From positions 1 through 64,000 of the forward strand of contig JBCCQY010000011.1 in NCBI GenBank assembly GCA_039208735.1: a stretch of 64,000 nt of DNA. The letters are read 5' to 3'. The notes beneath the pieces were generated by a model. The model had not been told where the DNA came from and made no database searches. It saw nothing but the letters and a program-made list of their open reading frames with translations. Shown one piece after another: positions 22,892 through 40,924 of the stretch (position 1 is its first letter; every line of letters begins with the position of its first letter). Both the position numbers and the translations under genes were made by a program. Origin of the DNA: Myxococcota bacterium. Its GTDB lineage: Bacteria > Myxococcota_A > UBA796 > GCA-2862545.

Positions 22892-30718
<7,827 letters not shown>

Positions 30719-30722
<4 letters not shown>

Positions 30723-33517
30723 TGCCAGGTCCACGTTGCAAAGGCGACCCACTGTCCGTCTTGCCACGACCAGCCGGCAGCCGGATCCTCGACGATGCGC
30801 CCCACCCCTACGGTGCCGCGCCCATCAGCGAACAACGAAACAAAGGGGTCCGACGCCACTTGGGTGCCTCCTCGGATGCCCACCACGGTGAGTCCTCCGG
30901 AGGGTAAGCTTCGCCCGACTCGGGTGCGCGTGGCAAACGCTTGCACCTGCCACAATCCCAGAGCGAGGTCCAGGCGGTCATAGTGAGTGCCTTGTTGGCG
31001 GACCGCCTCGAACGCCGGGTCGGTGAGCCAACCCCCATTGGCGACGGCAGGCCACACCGAGACGGGGGTGCCTCCATGGGTCCACTGGTCGAGGACCGTC
31101 TCACCGGTGGAGAGACCGGTCTCGTAGCGAAGCGTCAACCCGTATCGGCCCAGTTGGAACCGTCCGCCTCCGCGCACGAGTTGCCAGTCCAATCCTCCGG
31201 TCTGGCCAACCTGTCCGGTAACGAAGCCTTCGAGCGCAACAATGTCGCGACGGGGTTCGACGACCGCAAGCGAGGCGCCGAGTTGGCCCGCCACTCGGGT
31301 CAGCCCTCCGTCGCCAAGATCGACCCGTTCGACGACCGCTCCGAGCGAGGTGCGAAGATTTGCCGCGATGCCCAGGCGATGCCCACCCTTCCGGGTCAGT
31401 GCACCGCCAGCTCGACGAACTCCAAAGCGGCGATCTTCACCGAGAAACCCTGTGAGTTTCCATCGCTGGTTCGCCCCCCGGGCCCCCAGCCCCACCGATG
31501 CCCCTCGCACCCCTCGCTCGGCCGGCGCAAGAGCCACGAATCCTTGGGCGGAATAGCGCCCCATTACGTCCCCTCCGGTCAGCGCCAGCTCACCCTGACC
31601 CTGCCCCGTTGTGGAAACCCCAAACCCCCCCAATGGAATCCACGTCCAGTGGCCCAACCGGTAGGACCGCCGCATGGGAACTCGCCGTTCGACCAGCGGC
31701 GGAGGCTGGTCAGGGCCGGCACGTTTGAGGATGTCCCCAGAACCGGGAAGGGGACGGTCGACGGGTTCGTCCAACCGATGGATCGCTCCGCCGTCTGGGG
31801 TCATCGTCGTGACCCACCAGGTCCCGTCGGGTCCCACCTCAGGCGCCTCGGCGCCCCCCACCAAGGTCCGAGGGATGGCATCCCCAAGGTCCACAGGGCC
31901 CGCGGGGGCGTCGGCAGGGCCAAGGTCGTAAACCGCCAGTTCCCCTCGCCAGGCGACTTCCGCCACCACGTGCCCTTCGGGGGTGAATGCCAGATGGCGG
32001 AGTTGCGGTCCGTCGAGGGACACGGGGTGCCAGCGTGGCTGGCCTTTTTGCCGGTCCCAATACATCCAACCGTAGCCGCGGCCCCGGTTCTCGAGCCAGA
32101 CCAGCCCTTGGCCGTTCGGGGTCACGCGCGGATGGTCTACCTGGGGGGTCAGCCCGGGCTCGGAAACGGGGGTGAGGTCGCCCGTCGCCAAGTCGACCTC
32201 CACGATTTGGGTCTCGCCCCAACGCTGGCGCACGGCGACGGCCCAGGTTCCGGAGGGGGCGGGATCGGCCGACCGGACATCGGCCCTTCGGGTCACCCGG
32301 CGCTCCGTTTCCTCATCCACATTCCAAAGGTAAAGGTCGGACCGGAAACGGCCTTTGCGATCGGGAACCCGAGATTCGAACAAAATCGTCGAGTCGTCCA
32401 CGAAACGCGGGTTGCGCGCGACCCGGCGGCGATGAACCCGGACCCGGTCGATGGCGTGAGGAACGTACGGGGGCGGAATCGCCGCGACGTCTTCCGGATC
32501 TGCCCGGAGTTGACGTTCGATCGCAGCTTGTCGCTCGGACTCGAAGTCCTCGGGCGGCATTGCGGAAAACACCACCAGGGAAGACCGGCCATTCCGCGAA
32601 AAGACCGGCACCGCGATGCGTTCTCCATCGGGGCTCACCGAGAGATGACCCAGGCCCGCTGGACGTTCGAAGACCCGATTTGAGCGATCGGGCCAGGGCG
32701 TTGGCCACGCTTCGGCCATGACTTCCGCGACGAACCGACCGTACGCCACTTGGGGCGACTCGCCGAAGAGGCCCGCGAATGCGGATTTGAAGCTTCGATC
32801 CTGCCTAGCAGTAAGCCGGGCCCACAGGTCCCGGAGCGCGCCCTGGTGATGCTGAGCTTCGATCCAGTCGAGGAAGGCGGCCCCTACGAGGTACGCAAAA
32901 CCTCCACCGCGATGACGGTTCGCGCCAGAAAGTTCGCCATAGACGGGAAATCGCCCCGTACGCGCGAGCAGGCGCAGCCAGACGAGCGACGCATCATCAT
33001 TGGGGCGGCCGGCCCCGGTAAGTCGGCCTTCCACCACGGTGGCGTAGCCTTCGACCACCCAGCGGGGGATCTTCGTGGGGACGGGTCCCCAGCCCGTCGT
33101 GCGCTGAAGGAATCGCCGAAGACCATTTCGGGACTCCAACGTCAGGTGCACGATGTGGGTGTCTTCGTGCACGACCAGATTCTCGACCCAGTCCCGCTGA
33201 TGGCCAATCACCGAGTCGGCGGGCGGCGGACTCGTGAACAGCCGCATTCTTGGTCCGCGACTGTCGGGAAGGGCTTGGCCGTTGGACGCCGCGAACGGAT
33301 CCACAATGAGCACGTCCACCGGATGGTCTGGCACCACCCCGACCTCGGCGGCCACACGTTCGCGCATGGCCTCGATGCGTTCACCCACATCCGTGGCATA
33401 GGCCTTGGCCGCTCGCGGGTAGTGGATGCGGAAGTGAGGGGTTTGGAGGGTTCGCCAGCGACCGGGAGCCACCGGTTGGGCGAGGGCACCAAGAATGACG
33501 AAAAGGGCAATGAGCAT
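30719..33517 (-). CDS. Large exported protein: gluzincin-like N-domain, TolB-like beta-propeller, possible C-terminal barrel
   Basis: WRTLQTPHFRIHY, VHEDTH...WVVEGYA; repeats SPDGERIA, PSGTWAV, TPNGQGL, GPDGTWW; ends ATWTWQ. Confidence 0.72.
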
Positions 33518-33541: not shown

Positions 33542-34906
33542 CTACGACGGCCGACGGCGCTGCACCATGAGGGCAAAGGAACGGCCCGCGAGGTCGTCGG
33601 CATCCAGGCCCGACGGGGCGAGTTCCTCGAGGCTCAACGCCCCCGCGTCCACCATGCGGAGCACCTTGGTGAGCAGCTCCTGTCCACGCCACAGCAAGTC
33701 AGGCCGGGCTTCGGCCCCTGCGAGGCACCGCAGCAGGGTTTCGGCCATTCCGTCTGTCACCTCGGGCCAGGTGCTTCGAGCGTAGGCAAAGTAGGCGGCC
33801 CATCGAGCCGGGAGCTGCCGCGGGTCATCGTCGGTGCCCCACGAGACGCCTTGCTTCAGCAGTGCGTGGACGCGATCGGCGCCCCGGCGCCAGACCTCAT
33901 GGACCTCCGCGAACCGTTCCGCCCGTTCCGCGGGGCTGACCGCTTCCGGATCGAGGTCTCGGAGGTTCGGCGACCGGCCCGCGGACAGCTGAATGGAGGT
34001 TTCCGAAACTTGGGCCCGCGCGGTGGCGAGGACCAAGTCCGCAACCGCGGTGCCGTGGGTCTGGCGAAGGCTCTCGAGGTCGACGCGAACCGACCGAAGA
34101 CGGCCTCGACTTACCGATGTCGACAGCGGATAACGGGCGTTCGCGAGGACCGCGGCGGGCCGGGTGATGTGCCACTCGAGGCCCACCGTTCCAAGTGGCC
34201 AGCCCACCGAGCGCTCGAGATGGTCCAGCAATGGGGTCAAGGCTCCGATGACGCGATCGCTTAGATCGTCGACGGTCAGCTGGAGCGCGGGGAAAGGCGT
34301 CTGGTGGTGGTCGCGCCAGTCGCGGAACATCGTGACCAGCCGTTCGACGGTACGTGGGGCATCGGTTGCCGCCAGTGAACCAAGCTCCAGCGTGATCTGG
34401 TCCGGCAGGTTGCGCTGCTCCGCGTCGATGGCGAACGCCCGGGCGATCGCGACGGCGATGTCGGGTCCTGAGGCGGCGGCCGCGGCGCTTGTGAGCTGGA
34501 CGCGCAGGTCCTGGATCGACCGCGACGCGAGGCGTTCGGTGACTCGTCGGTAGACCTCATGGGCGAGTTTTGCCTCCGGCCATTGCGCTTCCGTGGCCGC
34601 ATCGCGGCGCTCCAGTCCAGAGAGGATCTCGTCGACGCGCTTCGGGTCGGTGGGAAGGACTTCCCAGCCCGGCAAGCGCAAGGCGCGCCACAACTCCACA
34701 CAGTCGGGCGCAAAGGTCTGCATCGCCAACATCGCGGAGCGATTTGCCCGGCTCATGAAGTCGGGCTGCAGATCGGTTCCATTGACCACAAAGGATTCGA
34801 CCCACAGCGGCTTGGGGGCTGCAGGAGGGTCATGGGAGCGTGCGGTCCTCTGAGTGAGGACTTCCAGCGCCGCAGACAGAACATCCGGATCGAGACGGTT
34901 GGCCAT
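33542..34906 (-). CDS. Divergent DUF6986/HpcH-HpaI aldolase-like protein
   Basis: Remnant motifs QDLRVQL, PRQLPARWAAYFAY and C-terminal GL..DDL..RSF...RR recalled from that family. Confidence 0.5.
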   Translation of the reverse strand: MANRLDPDVLSAALEVLTQRTARSHDPPAAPKPLWVESFVVNGTDLQPDFMSRANRSAMLAMQTFAPDCVELWRALRLPGWEVLPTDPKRVDEILSGLERRDAATEAQWPEAKLAHEVYRRVTERLASRSIQDLRVQLTSAAAAASGPDIAVAIARAFAIDAEQRNLPDQITLELGSLAATDAPRTVERLVTMFRDWRDHHQTPFPALQLTVDDLSDRVIGALTPLLDHLERSVGWPLGTVGLEWHITRPAAVLANARYPLSTSVSRGRLRSVRVDLESLRQTHGTAVADLVLATARAQVSETSIQLSAGRSPNLRDLDPEAVSPAERAERFAEVHEVWRRGADRVHALLKQGVSWGTDDDPRQLPARWAAYFAYARSTWPEVTDGMAETLLRCLAGAEARPDLLWRGQELLTKVLRMVDAGALSLEELAPSGLDADDLAGRSFALMVQRRRPS

Positions 34907-34953: not shown

Positions 34954-36198
34954 ATGCACACACTGGCTCACGATACGGCGCTGGTCCTGGTGATGGTGGG
35001 GTTACCGGCTCGCGGCAAGACCTTCATGGCGCGAAAGATTGCGCGGTACCTCAATTGGCTCGGCGTGACGTCGCGAGTGTTCAATGTTGGCAATTATCGC
35101 CGACATTACTTGGGCTCGGCCCAGCCCGCGACGTTCTTCGACCCTAAGAATCCAGAAGGATTCGACAAACGCCGGCAAATGGCGATGGCAGCCCTCGACG
35201 ATCTCCTCACCTGGCTCAAAGACCAGGCGGGTCGTGCGGTGGCGATCTACGACGCGACCAACGTGACCCGACAACGCCGCCAGTGGCTTCGCCAGCAGCT
35301 GGCCAACCATGGCATTGAACCTGTTTTTGTGGAGTCGATGAGTTCTGACCGAGGGCTCATTGAACACAACATTCGGCAAACCAAGTTGTCGATGCCGGAC
35401 TATGCCAACGTCGAGCCCGAGGAGGCGGTGCGCGACTTTCGTGAGCGTATTGCCCACTACCAAAGTGCGTATGAGCCGGTCGACGTCGACGAGGGACCGC
35501 ATGTCAAGGTCATCGACGTGGGCGAGCGCGTGAACCTGCATCGCATTCACGGCAGCTTGCTCTCCCGGATCGTGTTTTTCCTGATGAACCTGCACATCGT
35601 TCCTCGACCGGTGTTTCTCACCCGGCATGGAGAGTCCGATTTCAACGTGCAGGGTCGACTTGGCGGTGACCCTGATCTGACGGCGCGAGGTCGTTCGTTT
35701 GCGCGCGACCTGGCCCAGTTTTTTACGCAGCGACTCGCCGAACCCCCCATCGTGTTCACGAGTACGTTGAAGCGGGCACGGCAGACCGCAGAGGCGCTGC
35801 CGTTCGAGGTCAACTCCATCAAGAACCTCGATGAGATCGATGCGGGGGTCTGCGATGGGTGGACCTACGCCGACATGATGGAACGTTTGCCTGAAGAATA
35901 TGCCTCGCGCCAGGCCGATAAGCTCCGCTATCGGTATCCTCGGGGCGAGTCCTACGAAGATGTCATCCAACGGCTCGATCCGGTCATCATCGAGGTTGAA
36001 CGGCAGCGTTCACCGGTCATCATTGTGGCTCACCAGGCGGTGATTCGGTGTCTGTACGGCTACCTGACCGACCAAGCGCTCGAAACGTCGCCGCACCTCG
36101 CCGTGCCGCTGCACACGGTGACCGAACTTGTGCCCCGTGCTTACGGGGCTGGAGAGAGCCGGACAAGCTTCATTGTACCGGACAGACCGTTGGGTTGA
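34954..36198 (+). CDS. Bifunctional 6-phosphofructo-2-kinase/fructose-2,6-bisphosphatase (eukaryote-type)
   Basis: VMVGLPARGKT, FNVGNYRR, YDATN, DF.ERI..Y; LTRHGES, LDEIDAGVCDG, YRYPRGESYEDV, AHQAV.R. Confidence 0.92.
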   Translation: MHTLAHDTALVLVMVGLPARGKTFMARKIARYLNWLGVTSRVFNVGNYRRHYLGSAQPATFFDPKNPEGFDKRRQMAMAALDDLLTWLKDQAGRAVAIYDATNVTRQRRQWLRQQLANHGIEPVFVESMSSDRGLIEHNIRQTKLSMPDYANVEPEEAVRDFRERIAHYQSAYEPVDVDEGPHVKVIDVGERVNLHRIHGSLLSRIVFFLMNLHIVPRPVFLTRHGESDFNVQGRLGGDPDLTARGRSFARDLAQFFTQRLAEPPIVFTSTLKRARQTAEALPFEVNSIKNLDEIDAGVCDGWTYADMMERLPEEYASRQADKLRYRYPRGESYEDVIQRLDPVIIEVERQRSPVIIVAHQAVIRCLYGYLTDQALETSPHLAVPLHTVTELVPRAYGAGESRTSFIVPDRPLG

Positions 36199-37709: not shown

Positions 37710-37803
37710 TGGCGCTCCCGTGTGATGCTGGACTCCGAAGCGTACCCCGTCGACGGGGTTAGAGGGCCGGATGCCGAGCATCGGCTCGGGCCACGGAGCG
37801 AAA

Positions 37804-39459
37804 ATGGCGAGTCAAACCCGCGTCCAACACATCCAATCCTTCCATCGGCACCCCGATTCGTACAAGCATTGGTCGCTCGAGGTCGACGGCGCCACCGCCA
37901 CATTGGCCCTCGACGTGAAGGAAGATCAGGGCTTGCGTCCTGACGACTACGTTCTCAAGCAGAACAGCTACGACCTCGGGGTCGACATGGAGCTGGCCGA
38001 TGCCATCGAACGGCTTCGGTTCGAGCACCCCCAGGTGCGCACGGTCATCATCACGTCCTCACAGCCCAAGGTCTTTTGCGCCGGCGCGAACATTCGCATG
38101 CTCGCCACGTCGACCCATGGGTTCAAGGTCAACTTCTGCCGCTACACCAACGAAACGCGATGCGGCCTCGAAGATGCCTCTGCGAATTCCGGATTGCGGA
38201 GCATTGCAGCCCTCAACGGAACGGCTGCAGGGGGCGGCTACGAGTTGGCACTGGCCTGCGACGAGATCTTCCTCATCGATGACGGCTCCTCCGCCGTGAG
38301 CCTGCCCGAAGTGCCCCTGCTGGGCGTTCTTCCCGGCACCGGCGGACTGACCCGCCTCGTTGACAAGCGCCGCGTGCGCCGTGACGTGGCCGATCTCTTC
38401 TGCACCAAGGCGGAAGGGTTCCGGGCTCGAGATGCCGTGCGGTTCCAGCTCGTCGATGGTGCGTTCCCCCGCTCCAAGTGGGAAGATGGCATCGCAGGCG
38501 AGGCGGCGAAGACCCAAGGATCCGACGACACGATCAAGGGCATTCAACTCACCGAAGTGAAGAGCGAAGTCTCGGAAGACGGCCACACGCGTACCTATGG
38601 GTCCGTGTCATTGACCCTCGACGAGACCCTGCGCACGGCAACCATCACGGTGCGTGCTCCGGAAGGGCCGGCTCCTTCGATCGAGGACCTGCACGCCCAG
38701 GGCGATCAGGCCTGGGTCTTCCGCGCCTACCGCGAACTCGACGACGTGCTGCTGCGGCTGCGGTTCAACCACGACACCGTAGGCACCATCCTGTTGCGGA
38801 CCGAAGGTGATGCTGACGCCGTCGTGGCCCATGACGCCACCGTGCTTGACCACCCAGACGATTGGTTGGCCCGTGAAATCCGGCTCTTCCAGGCTCGTGT
38901 CTTCCGCCGCCTCGACAACACGGCCCGTTCGATGTTCGCCCTTATCGACGAGGGAAGTTGCTTTGCGGGGTCGCTGTTCGAAATCACGCTGGCGGCTGAC
39001 CGTTCTTACATGCTCGATGATGAAGACGGAGCCGTGACCATTCGCGTGACGCAAGCGTCTGCCGGCGCCTACCCGATGTCGACTGGTCTTACGCGATTGC
39101 AGGCCCGGTACCAAAACGATGAGGCGTTGGTGAACCGGGCTCTCACGACGGACGGCCCGCTCGACGCACAGACCGCTCTCGATTTGGGGCTGGTCACGTT
39201 GGCGCCTGACGACATTGACTGGGAAGACGAGATCCGCATCGCGGTGGAGGAGCGCGTCAGCCTTTCGCCCGATGCGTTGACGGGGATGGAGCAGAACTTG
39301 CGTTTCGTGGGTCGAGAGACCTGCGACTCGAAGATCTTCGGCCGGCTGTCCGCATGGCAGAATTGGATCTTCCAGCGCCCCAACGCGGTTGGTGACGAAG
39401 GAGCGCTTACGTTGTACGGCCATCCGACGCGGCCGTCCTTCGACTGGCGACGGACCTGA
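37804..39459 (+). CDS. boxC: Benzoyl-CoA-dihydrodiol lyase / 2,3-epoxybenzoyl-CoA dihydrolase
   Basis: NSYDLGVD.ELADA, KVNFC..TNETR, SLPEVPLLGVLPGTGG, SPDALTGME.NLRF, IFGRLSAWQNWIF.RPNAVG. Confidence 0.93.
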   Translation: MASQTRVQHIQSFHRHPDSYKHWSLEVDGATATLALDVKEDQGLRPDDYVLKQNSYDLGVDMELADAIERLRFEHPQVRTVIITSSQPKVFCAGANIRMLATSTHGFKVNFCRYTNETRCGLEDASANSGLRSIAALNGTAAGGGYELALACDEIFLIDDGSSAVSLPEVPLLGVLPGTGGLTRLVDKRRVRRDVADLFCTKAEGFRARDAVRFQLVDGAFPRSKWEDGIAGEAAKTQGSDDTIKGIQLTEVKSEVSEDGHTRTYGSVSLTLDETLRTATITVRAPEGPAPSIEDLHAQGDQAWVFRAYRELDDVLLRLRFNHDTVGTILLRTEGDADAVVAHDATVLDHPDDWLAREIRLFQARVFRRLDNTARSMFALIDEGSCFAGSLFEITLAADRSYMLDDEDGAVTIRVTQASAGAYPMSTGLTRLQARYQNDEALVNRALTTDGPLDAQTALDLGLVTLAPDDIDWEDEIRIAVEERVSLSPDALTGMEQNLRFVGRETCDSKIFGRLSAWQNWIFQRPNAVGDEGALTLYGHPTRPSFDWRRT

Positions 39460-39508
39460 CAGGGGCGATGTCGGTCATGTTACCCTGCCCACTTGCAGGA
39501 GACGATTC

Positions 39509-40924
39509 ATGGCCGGCATCGACTATAATGAACGGATTCCGAACAACGTTGGGCTGTCGGACAACCGGCGTCTACAGCGGGCACTCGAGAAGTGGCAACC
39601 GGCGTACCTCGACTGGTGGCGCCAAATGGGGCCCGAGGGCTGGCAGGAAAAGGACGTTTACCTGCGTACGGCGGTGAGCGTTGACAAGGGTGGTTGGGCC
39701 CATTTCGACTACGTTCAGATGCCCGACTACCGCTGGGGCATTTTCCTCGCCGACGCCGAGCCCGACCGGACGATCGGATTTGGCGACCACGCGGGACAGC
39801 CTGCGTGGCAGGAAGTGCCCGGCGAGTACCGCAACATGCTGCGCCGCATCATCGTCACCCAAGGCGACACAGAGCCTGCGAGTGTCGAGCAGCAGCGTAT
39901 TCTCGGGGCCACGGCACCGTCGTTGTACGACCTGCGCAATCTGTTTCAGGTCAACGTGGAGGAAGGCCGTCACCTGTGGGCCATGGTCTACCTGTTGCAC
40001 GGCTTCTTTGGCCGTGATGGCCGCGATGAGGCCGAAGAGTTGTTGGCCCGTCGCGCTGGAGATGCGGACAAGCCCCGCATCCTCGATGCCTTCAATCAGG
40101 AATGTCCCGACTGGTTGACCTTCTTCTGTTTCACCACGTTCACCGACCGTGACGGGAAGTTCCAGCTCGGTGCCCTGGCAGAGTCCGCGTTCGACCCGCT
40201 GTCACGCACGTGCCGCTTCATGCTTACCGAAGAGGCCCATCACCTCTTTGTCGGTCAGACCGGCGTAGAGCGGGTGCTTCGGCGGGCGGTGCAGCTCGCC
40301 AAGGAAAACCCAGGGGTGTCGGTTCGTGATCAGGGCGGCATCCCACTCGAGATCGTCCAGAAGTTCGTGAACTTCTGGTTCAGCTACAGCCTCGATCTGT
40401 TTGGCTCGGAGATCTCTTCAAATGCGGCTGACTTCTTCGCGAGTGGGCTCAAGGGGCGTTGGCGCGAGAATCAGTACGAAGACCACCTCGTGACCGAGGG
40501 ACACTACACGATGTCCCAGCTCGAAGGCGGCAAGCTCATCGACGTCGATGTGCCCATGCGGAACGCGATGAACGAGGTCCTGCGGGACGAGTATGTGAAG
40601 GACTGCGAGAAGGTCCTCGAAAAGTGGAATCGCGCGCTGGTGGCCGAAGGGGAGACCGACTTCGAAATCACGCTGCCATCGGTTCGTTTCCATCGCCGAC
40701 AGGGCATCTATGCAGACGCACACTTCGATACCGCGGGCAACCCCATCTCGGCCGAAGCGTTTGAAGCGAAGCGCGCGTCCTGGCTTCCCACGGACGAAGA
40801 ACGGGACTACGTCCGTTCGCTGATGGCGCCCTGCTACGAGACGGGAAAGATGGCGAACTGGATCGCGGCGCCGCGCAAGGGCATCAACGGGCAGGAACTC
40901 AGCTACGAGTACGTCCGGCTCTAA
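39509..40924 (+). CDS. boxB: Benzoyl-CoA 2,3-epoxidase oxygenase subunit
   Basis: IPNNV.L, QGDTEPASVEQQ, VEEGRH, DRDGKFQL, TEEAHH di-iron motifs. Confidence 0.95.
   Translation: MAGIDYNERIPNNVGLSDNRRLQRALEKWQPAYLDWWRQMGPEGWQEKDVYLRTAVSVDKGGWAHFDYVQMPDYRWGIFLADAEPDRTIGFGDHAGQPAWQEVPGEYRNMLRRIIVTQGDTEPASVEQQRILGATAPSLYDLRNLFQVNVEEGRHLWAMVYLLHGFFGRDGRDEAEELLARRAGDADKPRILDAFNQECPDWLTFFCFTTFTDRDGKFQLGALAESAFDPLSRTCRFMLTEEAHHLFVGQTGVERVLRRAVQLAKENPGVSVRDQGGIPLEIVQKFVNFWFSYSLDLFGSEISSNAADFFASGLKGRWRENQYEDHLVTEGHYTMSQLEGGKLIDVDVPMRNAMNEVLRDEYVKDCEKVLEKWNRALVAEGETDFEITLPSVRFHRRQGIYADAHFDTAGNPISAEAFEAKRASWLPTDEERDYVRSLMAPCYETGKMANWIAAPRKGINGQELSYEYVRL

Follow-up and report, generated by a model that had tools for sequence, protein, structure and literature searches.

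A tail-less PFK-2/FBPase-2 in Myxococcota and a tandem phosphofructokinase as its candidate receptor

Introduction

According to a 2026 preprint, regulation of phosphofructokinase (PFK) by fructose-2,6-bisphosphate (Fru-2,6-P2) appears to be eukaryote-specific (PMC12873801), and an account going back to Rider 2004 cites Desulfovibrio as an exception among bacteria in having PFK-2/FBPase-2 (PMC9721465). The DNA analysed here, a stretch of 64,000 nucleotides from a Myxococcota genome (hereafter the window), contains a gene that an initial annotation, made from the sequence alone, had read as an intact eukaryote-type PFK-2/FBPase-2. This raises the question of whether the bacterium might make Fru-2,6-P2 and, if so, what would receive the signal. 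Bacterial PFK-2/FBPase-2 genes have so far been without an obvious receiver; this genome (G000) combines a putative maker with two candidate receivers.

The gene encodes a compact member of the PFKFB family

The gene and its two domains are arranged as follows:

34954..36198, + strand: PFK-2/FBPase-2 gene, an open reading frame of 414 aa without stops
34966..35601, + strand: 6PF2K kinase domain, aa 5-216 (Pfam, E 1e-74)
35611..36144, + strand: histidine-phosphatase (FBPase-2) domain His_Phos_1, aa 220-397 (Pfam, E 5e-40; 1bif alignment)

The HMM search thus bears out the eukaryotic domain order, 6PF2K followed by His_Phos_1, and the rat bifunctional enzyme (1bif/3bif) aligns to aa 10-399 of the product in a single unbroken stretch (E 2e-120). 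Altogether, 12 mammalian PFKFB sequences from the PDB align over about aa 9-399 (E 2e-120 to 5e-110); in the same PDB sequence search, bacterial histidine phosphatases align to the second domain only, at E 9e-15 or weaker. An AlphaFold model of the protein (pLDDT 91.7, pTM 0.89; 35-sequence alignment) matches human, rat and bovine PFKFBs (PFKFB1-4) with TM-scores of 0.88-0.94. Pfam, PDB alignment and structure therefore agree on the architecture of the PFKFB family, with 6PF2K at the N-terminus and, fused to it, a branch-1 histidine phosphatase at the C-terminus. All six motifs named initially were located, namely GLPARGKT (aa 16-23), FNVGNYRR (43-50) and DATN (100-103) in the kinase and RHG (224-226), EID (294-296) and AHQ (359-361) in the phosphatase. 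The absence of regulatory tails was likewise confirmed: the catalytic core (aa 10-399 of 414) is flanked by ~9 N-terminal and ~15 C-terminal residues, and the phosphorylatable terminal tails of the animal hormone-regulated PFKFB isoforms are missing. The 120 closest proteins measure 387-450 aa (median 409). A promoter and terminator scan found no signal.

The active sites of both domains are conserved

The residues named as surrounding the Fru-6-P pocket in PFKFB3 are Thr48, Arg74, Arg75, Arg98, Asp124, Thr126, Arg132, Arg189 and Tyr193 (PMC3177832). Mapped through rat alignments at a constant offset of 24-25, these residues correspond to T23, R49, R50, R73, D100, T102, R108, R165 and Y169 of the bacterial protein, all of them present, and with Walker A at G16-T23 the kinase domain holds both its ATP and its Fru-6-P residues. 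The phosphatase site comprises R224-H225-G226, N231, R274, E294, Y305, R319, K323, R327, Y334, H360, Q361 and R365, and thus the RHG motif, the catalytic Glu, the second His and the substrate Arg/Lys/Tyr residues. PFKFB3 carries a Ser where the bacterial protein carries an Arg, and because of this Arg the phosphatase is predicted to be likely active.

Conservation was judged from 350 aligned sequences, 210 bacterial and 140 others, after 44 of 394 matches had been left out for low coverage, excess span or duplication; as the bacterial set was partly gathered with two exact motifs, its Walker A and YRYPRGESY columns are biased and the other columns are not. All 210 bacterial sequences share R49, R50, D100, T102, N103, K144, R165 and Y169 on the kinase side and R224, H225, R274, E294, Y305, R319, K323, Y334, H360 and R365 on the phosphatase side, and R108 (209/210) and R73 (199/210) are near-invariant. 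The substrate-pocket residues of both domains are the same as in animals, and the bacterial set is more invariant than the eukaryotic representatives. Compared with the related locus L092, the gene differs at 63, 37 and 219 first, second and third codon positions, respectively, which is, judged from the codons, a purifying pattern. We consider it quite probable that the 414-aa protein catalyses the PFK-2/FBPase-2 reactions.

The protein thus resembles animal PFKFB1-4 (1bif, 1k6m, 2axn, 5htk) in domain order, fold and checked active-site residues, at 42-47% identity in Foldseek alignments. Unlike them, it is bacterial, has no N- or C-terminal regulatory tails and occurs in single copy.

The gene is native to its genome

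As initially described, the gene is intronless, being one open reading frame, and sits among bacterial genes (Pfam): GyrA/ParC- and GyrB/ParE-type topoisomerase subunits, a sigma-70 factor, an SDR and the following divergent neighbour:

33542..34906, - strand: DUF6986 protein (Pfam)

The DUF6986 gene adjoins the PFK-2/FBPase-2 gene in this genome and at four other distinct loci only, all from close relatives, and is probably not part of the same system.

The suspicion that the gene is a contaminant, a chimera or a recent eukaryotic import without function could draw on the nature of the genome, a metagenome-assembled genome (MAG; completeness 92.7%) with an estimated contamination of 6.15%, and on the GC content of the gene's 1-kb bin, 0.59 vs ~0.64 in the surroundings. 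Orthologues with common neighbours are, however, present in 4/4 congeners (80%, 66%, 65% and 63% identity), codon usage is typical of the genome (23rd percentile, with GC3 at the 16th, among 2915 genome ORFs), and, by tetranucleotide profile, the contig ranks 5th of 192 in closeness to the genome mean. Moreover, cultured Minicystis rosea DSM 24000 has the gene in its complete genome (L111), which stands among the best 80 of 382 relatives that were examined from a GTDB scan with two exact motifs, and the bacterial sequences cluster apart from the eukaryotic representatives (see below). One 12.5-kb contig covers 30000-41000 with zero differences; it is no independent confirmation, as this DNA may itself derive from the same sequencing run. 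The distribution data already refute the suspicion, to which we attach practically no credence: the gene is native, and the contamination or chimerism named at the outset as a possible refutation does not apply.

A conserved operon was considered and rejected, since the 80 closest loci had unrelated recurring neighbours, SDR, acyl-CoA dehydrogenase and sigma factors among them, and a 13-locus cluster of apparent neighbours was discarded as consisting in part of antisense shadow frames. No sugar-metabolism operon was found in the window or among these recurring neighbours. A viral origin was also rejected, as six patterns retrieved no relative from viral_contigs.

Elsewhere in the window, the type II topoisomerase genes at 22892-27174 (+) stand in A-then-B order (GyrA/ParC-type before GyrB/ParE-type), and a 1198-aa protein at 27171-30767 (-) shows by eye a Ser/Thr kinase N-terminus, a P-loop region and TPR-like repeats. 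At 37771-40924 (+), a weak PaaA_PaaC-family gene comes after an enoyl-CoA-hydratase-family gene; this pair is probably boxC-boxB of benzoyl-CoA breakdown, and L092, L094 and L102 likewise have the PaaA_PaaC-family gene near PFK-2/FBPase-2.

A gene common in its phylum, with an unrooted tree

Matches to PF01591 (6PF2K) occur in 82/401 genomes of the phylum, including 26/26 of family f20, and in 64/182 genomes of the class, with 40/48 in f1, 15/16 in f6, 5/15 in f8, 2/22 in f5, 1/22 in f2, 0/33 in f7 and 0/10 in f3. In family f14, 67/171 genomes have a match. Carriers invariably hold one match per genome; the sole match of f2 (G568:C125:21463-21741) is partial and contains an internal stop. The initial annotation had described bacterial homologues as sporadic, which does not hold for this phylum, and the implied rarity of the gene is not supported either, since it is common there and NCBI already names such proteins in Myxococcota MAGs. 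The named homologues belong to Myxococcota, Myxococcales or Deltaproteobacteria, which makes Myxococcota the likely phylum of the host; other taxa appear in the MAG titles of some relatives, which we infer to be unreliable submitter labels. By itself, the gene is therefore not new but a member of a known family.

FastTree placed the 210 bacterial sequences on a single branch (support 0.994). In an IQ-TREE analysis of 68 rows, 22 bacterial and 46 others drawn randomly from the shorter branches, the bacterial sequences fell on one side of a short stem (SH-aLRT 90) and the backbone was unresolved. Named non-bacterial representatives were a bird, a fungus, a legume, Acytostelium, Rhodelphis, Pygsuia and Dermamoeba, most others having no name. 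Bacterial sampling leans towards the phylum of the query, and the tree is unrooted, as the fusion has no usable outgroup. This unrooted PFKFB tree speaks against the gene having been imported recently from animals, fungi or plants. As to the proposal that the gene bears on the origin of the eukaryotic enzyme, the bacterial sequences group together, and the unrooted tree gives neither direction of transfer. That the eukaryotic Fru-2,6-P2 circuit came from this phylum seems to us quite improbable.

Two clusters, P0368 and P0342, contain compact PFKFB proteins of 407-413 aa on marine metagenome contigs of up to 64 kb. They lie outside the myxobacterial branch, have an atypical composition and possibly represent a second prokaryotic or a viral lineage.

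A tandem PFK carries a predicted Fru-2,6-P2 pocket similar to the human one

Four PFK-domain matches were found in the genome, two of them in one frame:

G000:C22:18438-20567 (= L021:8439-10568): tandem PFK of 709 aa, two PFK halves in one frame, candidate receptor

This protein passes the TIGR02478 model (6PF1K_euk) with 783.6 bits vs a cut-off of 708.4, and its best PDB matches are human PFKs (E 1e-170). The N-half contains intact catalytic motifs (GGDG, SIDND, MGR, HVQR) and the C-half is degenerate (GGFE and TISNN), so that the fused halves, the catalytic N-half, the degenerate C-half and the score together mark a eukaryote-type tandem PFK1.

In the tandem PFKs of yeasts and mammals, the F' site of the C-half serves activation by Fru-2,6-P2, as stated in PMC12203962, from whose text 'Myxococc' is absent. 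The 19 residues of the human site are tabulated, and modification of Ser529 is noted to block binding, in PMC7702303 (Table S6 for the residues). The tandem PFK of G000 matches 17/19 of them, 16 as in PFK-P and one (Ile) as in PFK-L, with R744 positioned by motif and not via the pairwise alignment; Glu639 is replaced by Asp and Gly585 by Arg. A Ser-to-Asp change is reported to abolish activation in yeast and rabbit PFK. The protein thus has in common with eukaryotic tandem PFK1 (human PFKP, 4xz2/4u1r) the catalytic N-half and 17/19 site residues, and differs in the two replacements and a missing C-terminal tail.

In a tree of 266 tandem PFKs, from which the 19 site columns were left out, the G000 protein belongs to a clade of 62 sequences (support 1.0) with 15-17 site matches, hereafter the serine clade. 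Ser540 is present in 62/62 of its members vs 2/204 of the other tandem PFKs, Phe509 in 60/62 vs 15/204 and Arg576 in 57/62 vs 41/204. The other 204 carry Asn or Asp for Ser540 in 202 cases, have for the most part Trp at Phe509 and Lys at Arg576, and show 10-14 site matches (184 scored in full). Position G585 is Arg in 61/62 of the serine clade and E639 is Asp in 62/62, whereas the remaining sequences keep Glu in 203/203. Named members of the serine clade are Myxococcota and one MAG labelled Alphaproteobacteria; the other bacterial tandem PFKs (Anaerolineae, Caldilineae, Austwickia) share the two-half architecture and are annotated as 6-phosphofructokinase.

On the whole protein, most of the serine clade fits the eukaryotic model less well than the Asn/Asp type does: most Ser-type copies score 729-788 bits on TIGR02478 (one 884) vs 925-972 for non-Ser copies. 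The nearest relatives of the G000 tandem PFK by score are bacterial tandem PFKs, and a search with the C-half returned, among its top 120 matches, serine-clade members followed by bacterial-named or unnamed Asn/Asp types; no protein named as eukaryotic occurred among the top 120 of either PFK homologue search. On both counts, the likeness of the serine clade's pocket to the human one is site-specific, and it arose by convergence or was kept by selection. In human structures, the same pocket binds Fru-1,6-P2, as reported in PMC12203962 and PMC11345425. Judged from its residues, the tandem PFK has about an even chance of responding to Fru-2,6-P2.

Co-occurrence and linkage point to more than one possible target

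A readable Ser-type tandem PFK and a 6PF2K gene occur together in 12/12 genomes (G000, G001, G003, G016, G017, G024, G576, G579, G633, G635, G328 and G515), including genus g229 of another class. These genomes represent three families only (f1, f6, f14), of which f1 and f6 carry 6PF2K near-universally anyway, so the co-occurrence is suggestive and not a statistical test. Of the four non-Ser tandem copies, three lie in family f59, where 6PF2K is found in 0/8 genomes, and the fourth is in G538, a 6PF2K carrier. In G584, a tandem-type PFK is truncated to its N-half at a contig end and there is no 6PF2K match.

The tandem PFK is rare, being present in 8/401 genomes of the phylum, 11/182 of the class and 3/171 of f14, where 64/67 carriers of 6PF2K are without it. 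It was therefore rejected as a universal target (8/401 vs 82/401 carriers) and, because of this rarity, cannot explain retention of the gene in most carriers. No PFK-2/FBPase-2 gene was found in the flanks of 80 metagenome tandem-PFK loci.

Among 166 loci with the kinase domain, a set that contains duplicates and short loci, a PFK lies near the PFK-2/FBPase-2 gene in 10 distinct genomes. At 7/10 loci of f36 and 1/2 of f31 (L274, L276-L280, L283, L300), the two genes stand head-to-head, the PFK being an NF041103-like single-domain enzyme below the cut-off of that model. Three of these PFKs carry GGDD and five GGDG, a possible switch of the PPi/ATP donor. In two further genomes, a PfkA-type gene lies ~5-6 kb away. 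An apparent linkage in G023 was rejected, because the coinciding coordinates belong to two different contigs, C1 and C2, and locus L289 is without a PFK.

The second candidate receiver is class I FBPase, which is present in G000 (C118), in 51/61 relatives and in 59/65 carriers tested. It is equally common in non-carrier families (f2 5/5, f4 2/2, f5 4/4, f7 4/4), and its co-occurrence was therefore rejected as a discriminator. The FBPase I of E. coli is inhibited by Fru-2,6-P2. We slightly favour FBPase I, the only candidate present in most carriers, as a target in vivo. A GlpX FBPase was not found in the 92.7% complete genome.

A possible Fru-2,6-P2 circuit and its alternatives

In the circuit that we propose, the compact tail-less enzyme would convert Fru-6-P and ATP into Fru-2,6-P2 and hydrolyse it back, and the small Fru-2,6-P2 pool would report the supply of Fru-6-P. 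Fru-2,6-P2 would then activate the eukaryote-type tandem PFK and inhibit class I FBPase, pushing the Fru-6-P/Fru-1,6-P2 step towards glycolysis. Lacking phosphorylatable tails, the enzyme might shift between kinase and phosphatase activity in response to metabolites, for instance Fru-6-P, PEP and citrate, by analogy with the damping of mammalian PFKFB3 by PEP and citrate described in PMC12873801. The production of Fru-2,6-P2, suggested initially, gains support from the candidate receptor PFK and class I FBPase in the genome and from the PFK linkage in relatives. On sequence evidence, we lean somewhat towards a PFK-2/FBPase-2 that makes Fru-2,6-P2 and thereby sets the Fru-6-P/Fru-1,6-P2 direction via both targets. 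That some myxobacteria run the complete eukaryotic-type circuit of maker/eraser, activated tandem PFK and inhibited FBPase I, their tandem-PFK clade having evolved or kept the pocket only where the maker is present, we hold at a little short of an even chance.

Fru-2,6-P2 might instead be made for another target phylum-wide, FBPase I or a single-domain PFK, with the serine pocket serving Fru-1,6-P2 or Fru-6-P and the co-occurrence reflecting shared ancestry. The f14 carriers without a tandem PFK, the prevalence of FBPase I among carriers and the head-to-head linkage with a single-domain PFK fit this account, as do the pocket's capacity to bind Fru-1,6-P2 (PMC11345425) and its Arg at position 585, a residue also found in catalytic sites. 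The 12/12 co-occurrence across classes and the site-specific Ser/Phe/Arg pattern, in copies that mostly score lower on TIGR02478 than non-Ser ones, speak against it, and we deem it rather unlikely. Alternatively, the protein could act on a different sugar phosphate, or be mainly a phosphatase or Fru-6-P sensor, and the cell would then have no Fru-2,6-P2 signal. Such a role would agree with the missing conserved operon and with PMC9721465, which describes bacteria, one cited exception apart, as having no Fru-2,6-P2 and notes eukaryotic family members with weak or lost activity; it is at odds with the animal-like, highly invariant substrate pockets of both domains and with the PFK linkage in relatives, and we regard it as unlikely indeed.

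Compared with what is known, a bacterial family member from Desulfovibrio desulfuricans has been in print for ~20 years and is cited, in PMC9721465 after Rider 2004, as a lone exception, whereas the gene is found here in about a fifth of the sampled genomes of the phylum. In the literature examined on that case, we found no receptor described. Our searches, which covered few subscription journals and supplements, found no biochemical study of a bacterial PFK-2/FBPase-2, no paper on a myxobacterial tandem PFK and none on the pairing of maker and tandem PFK or on the serine clade. What appears to be new here is the candidate receptor, a tandem PFK paired with PFK-2/FBPase-2 in one genome. The circuit thereby becomes open to in vitro testing, with a predicted key residue and with Asn/Asp-type PFKs as natural negative controls. 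If assays confirm it, the system is a bacterial variant of the known eukaryotic circuit; the textbook boundary between eukaryotes and bacteria for Fru-2,6-P2 would then be overturned, a minimal tail-less model of PFK-2/FBPase-2 would be at hand, and myxobacteria would have another eukaryote-like pathway.

Further sugar-phosphate genes

Another PFK of G000 (G000:C90:33636-34870, L019), with GGED/PKTIDND, is spread over two overlapping frames, which indicates either a frameshift or an error in the assembly. In these myxobacteria, single-domain PfkA-type enzymes recur whose catalytic motif reads GGNG instead of GGDG (G000:C41 (L017), L177, L179, L192 and L160), and two of them are encoded ~5-6 kb away from PFK-2/FBPase-2. 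In addition, G000 encodes PGI, pyruvate kinase and a member of the glycogen-synthase family; its PGI match (G000:C185:13441-14664) lies inside an open frame of 876 aa, which suggests a fusion such as transaldolase-PGI.
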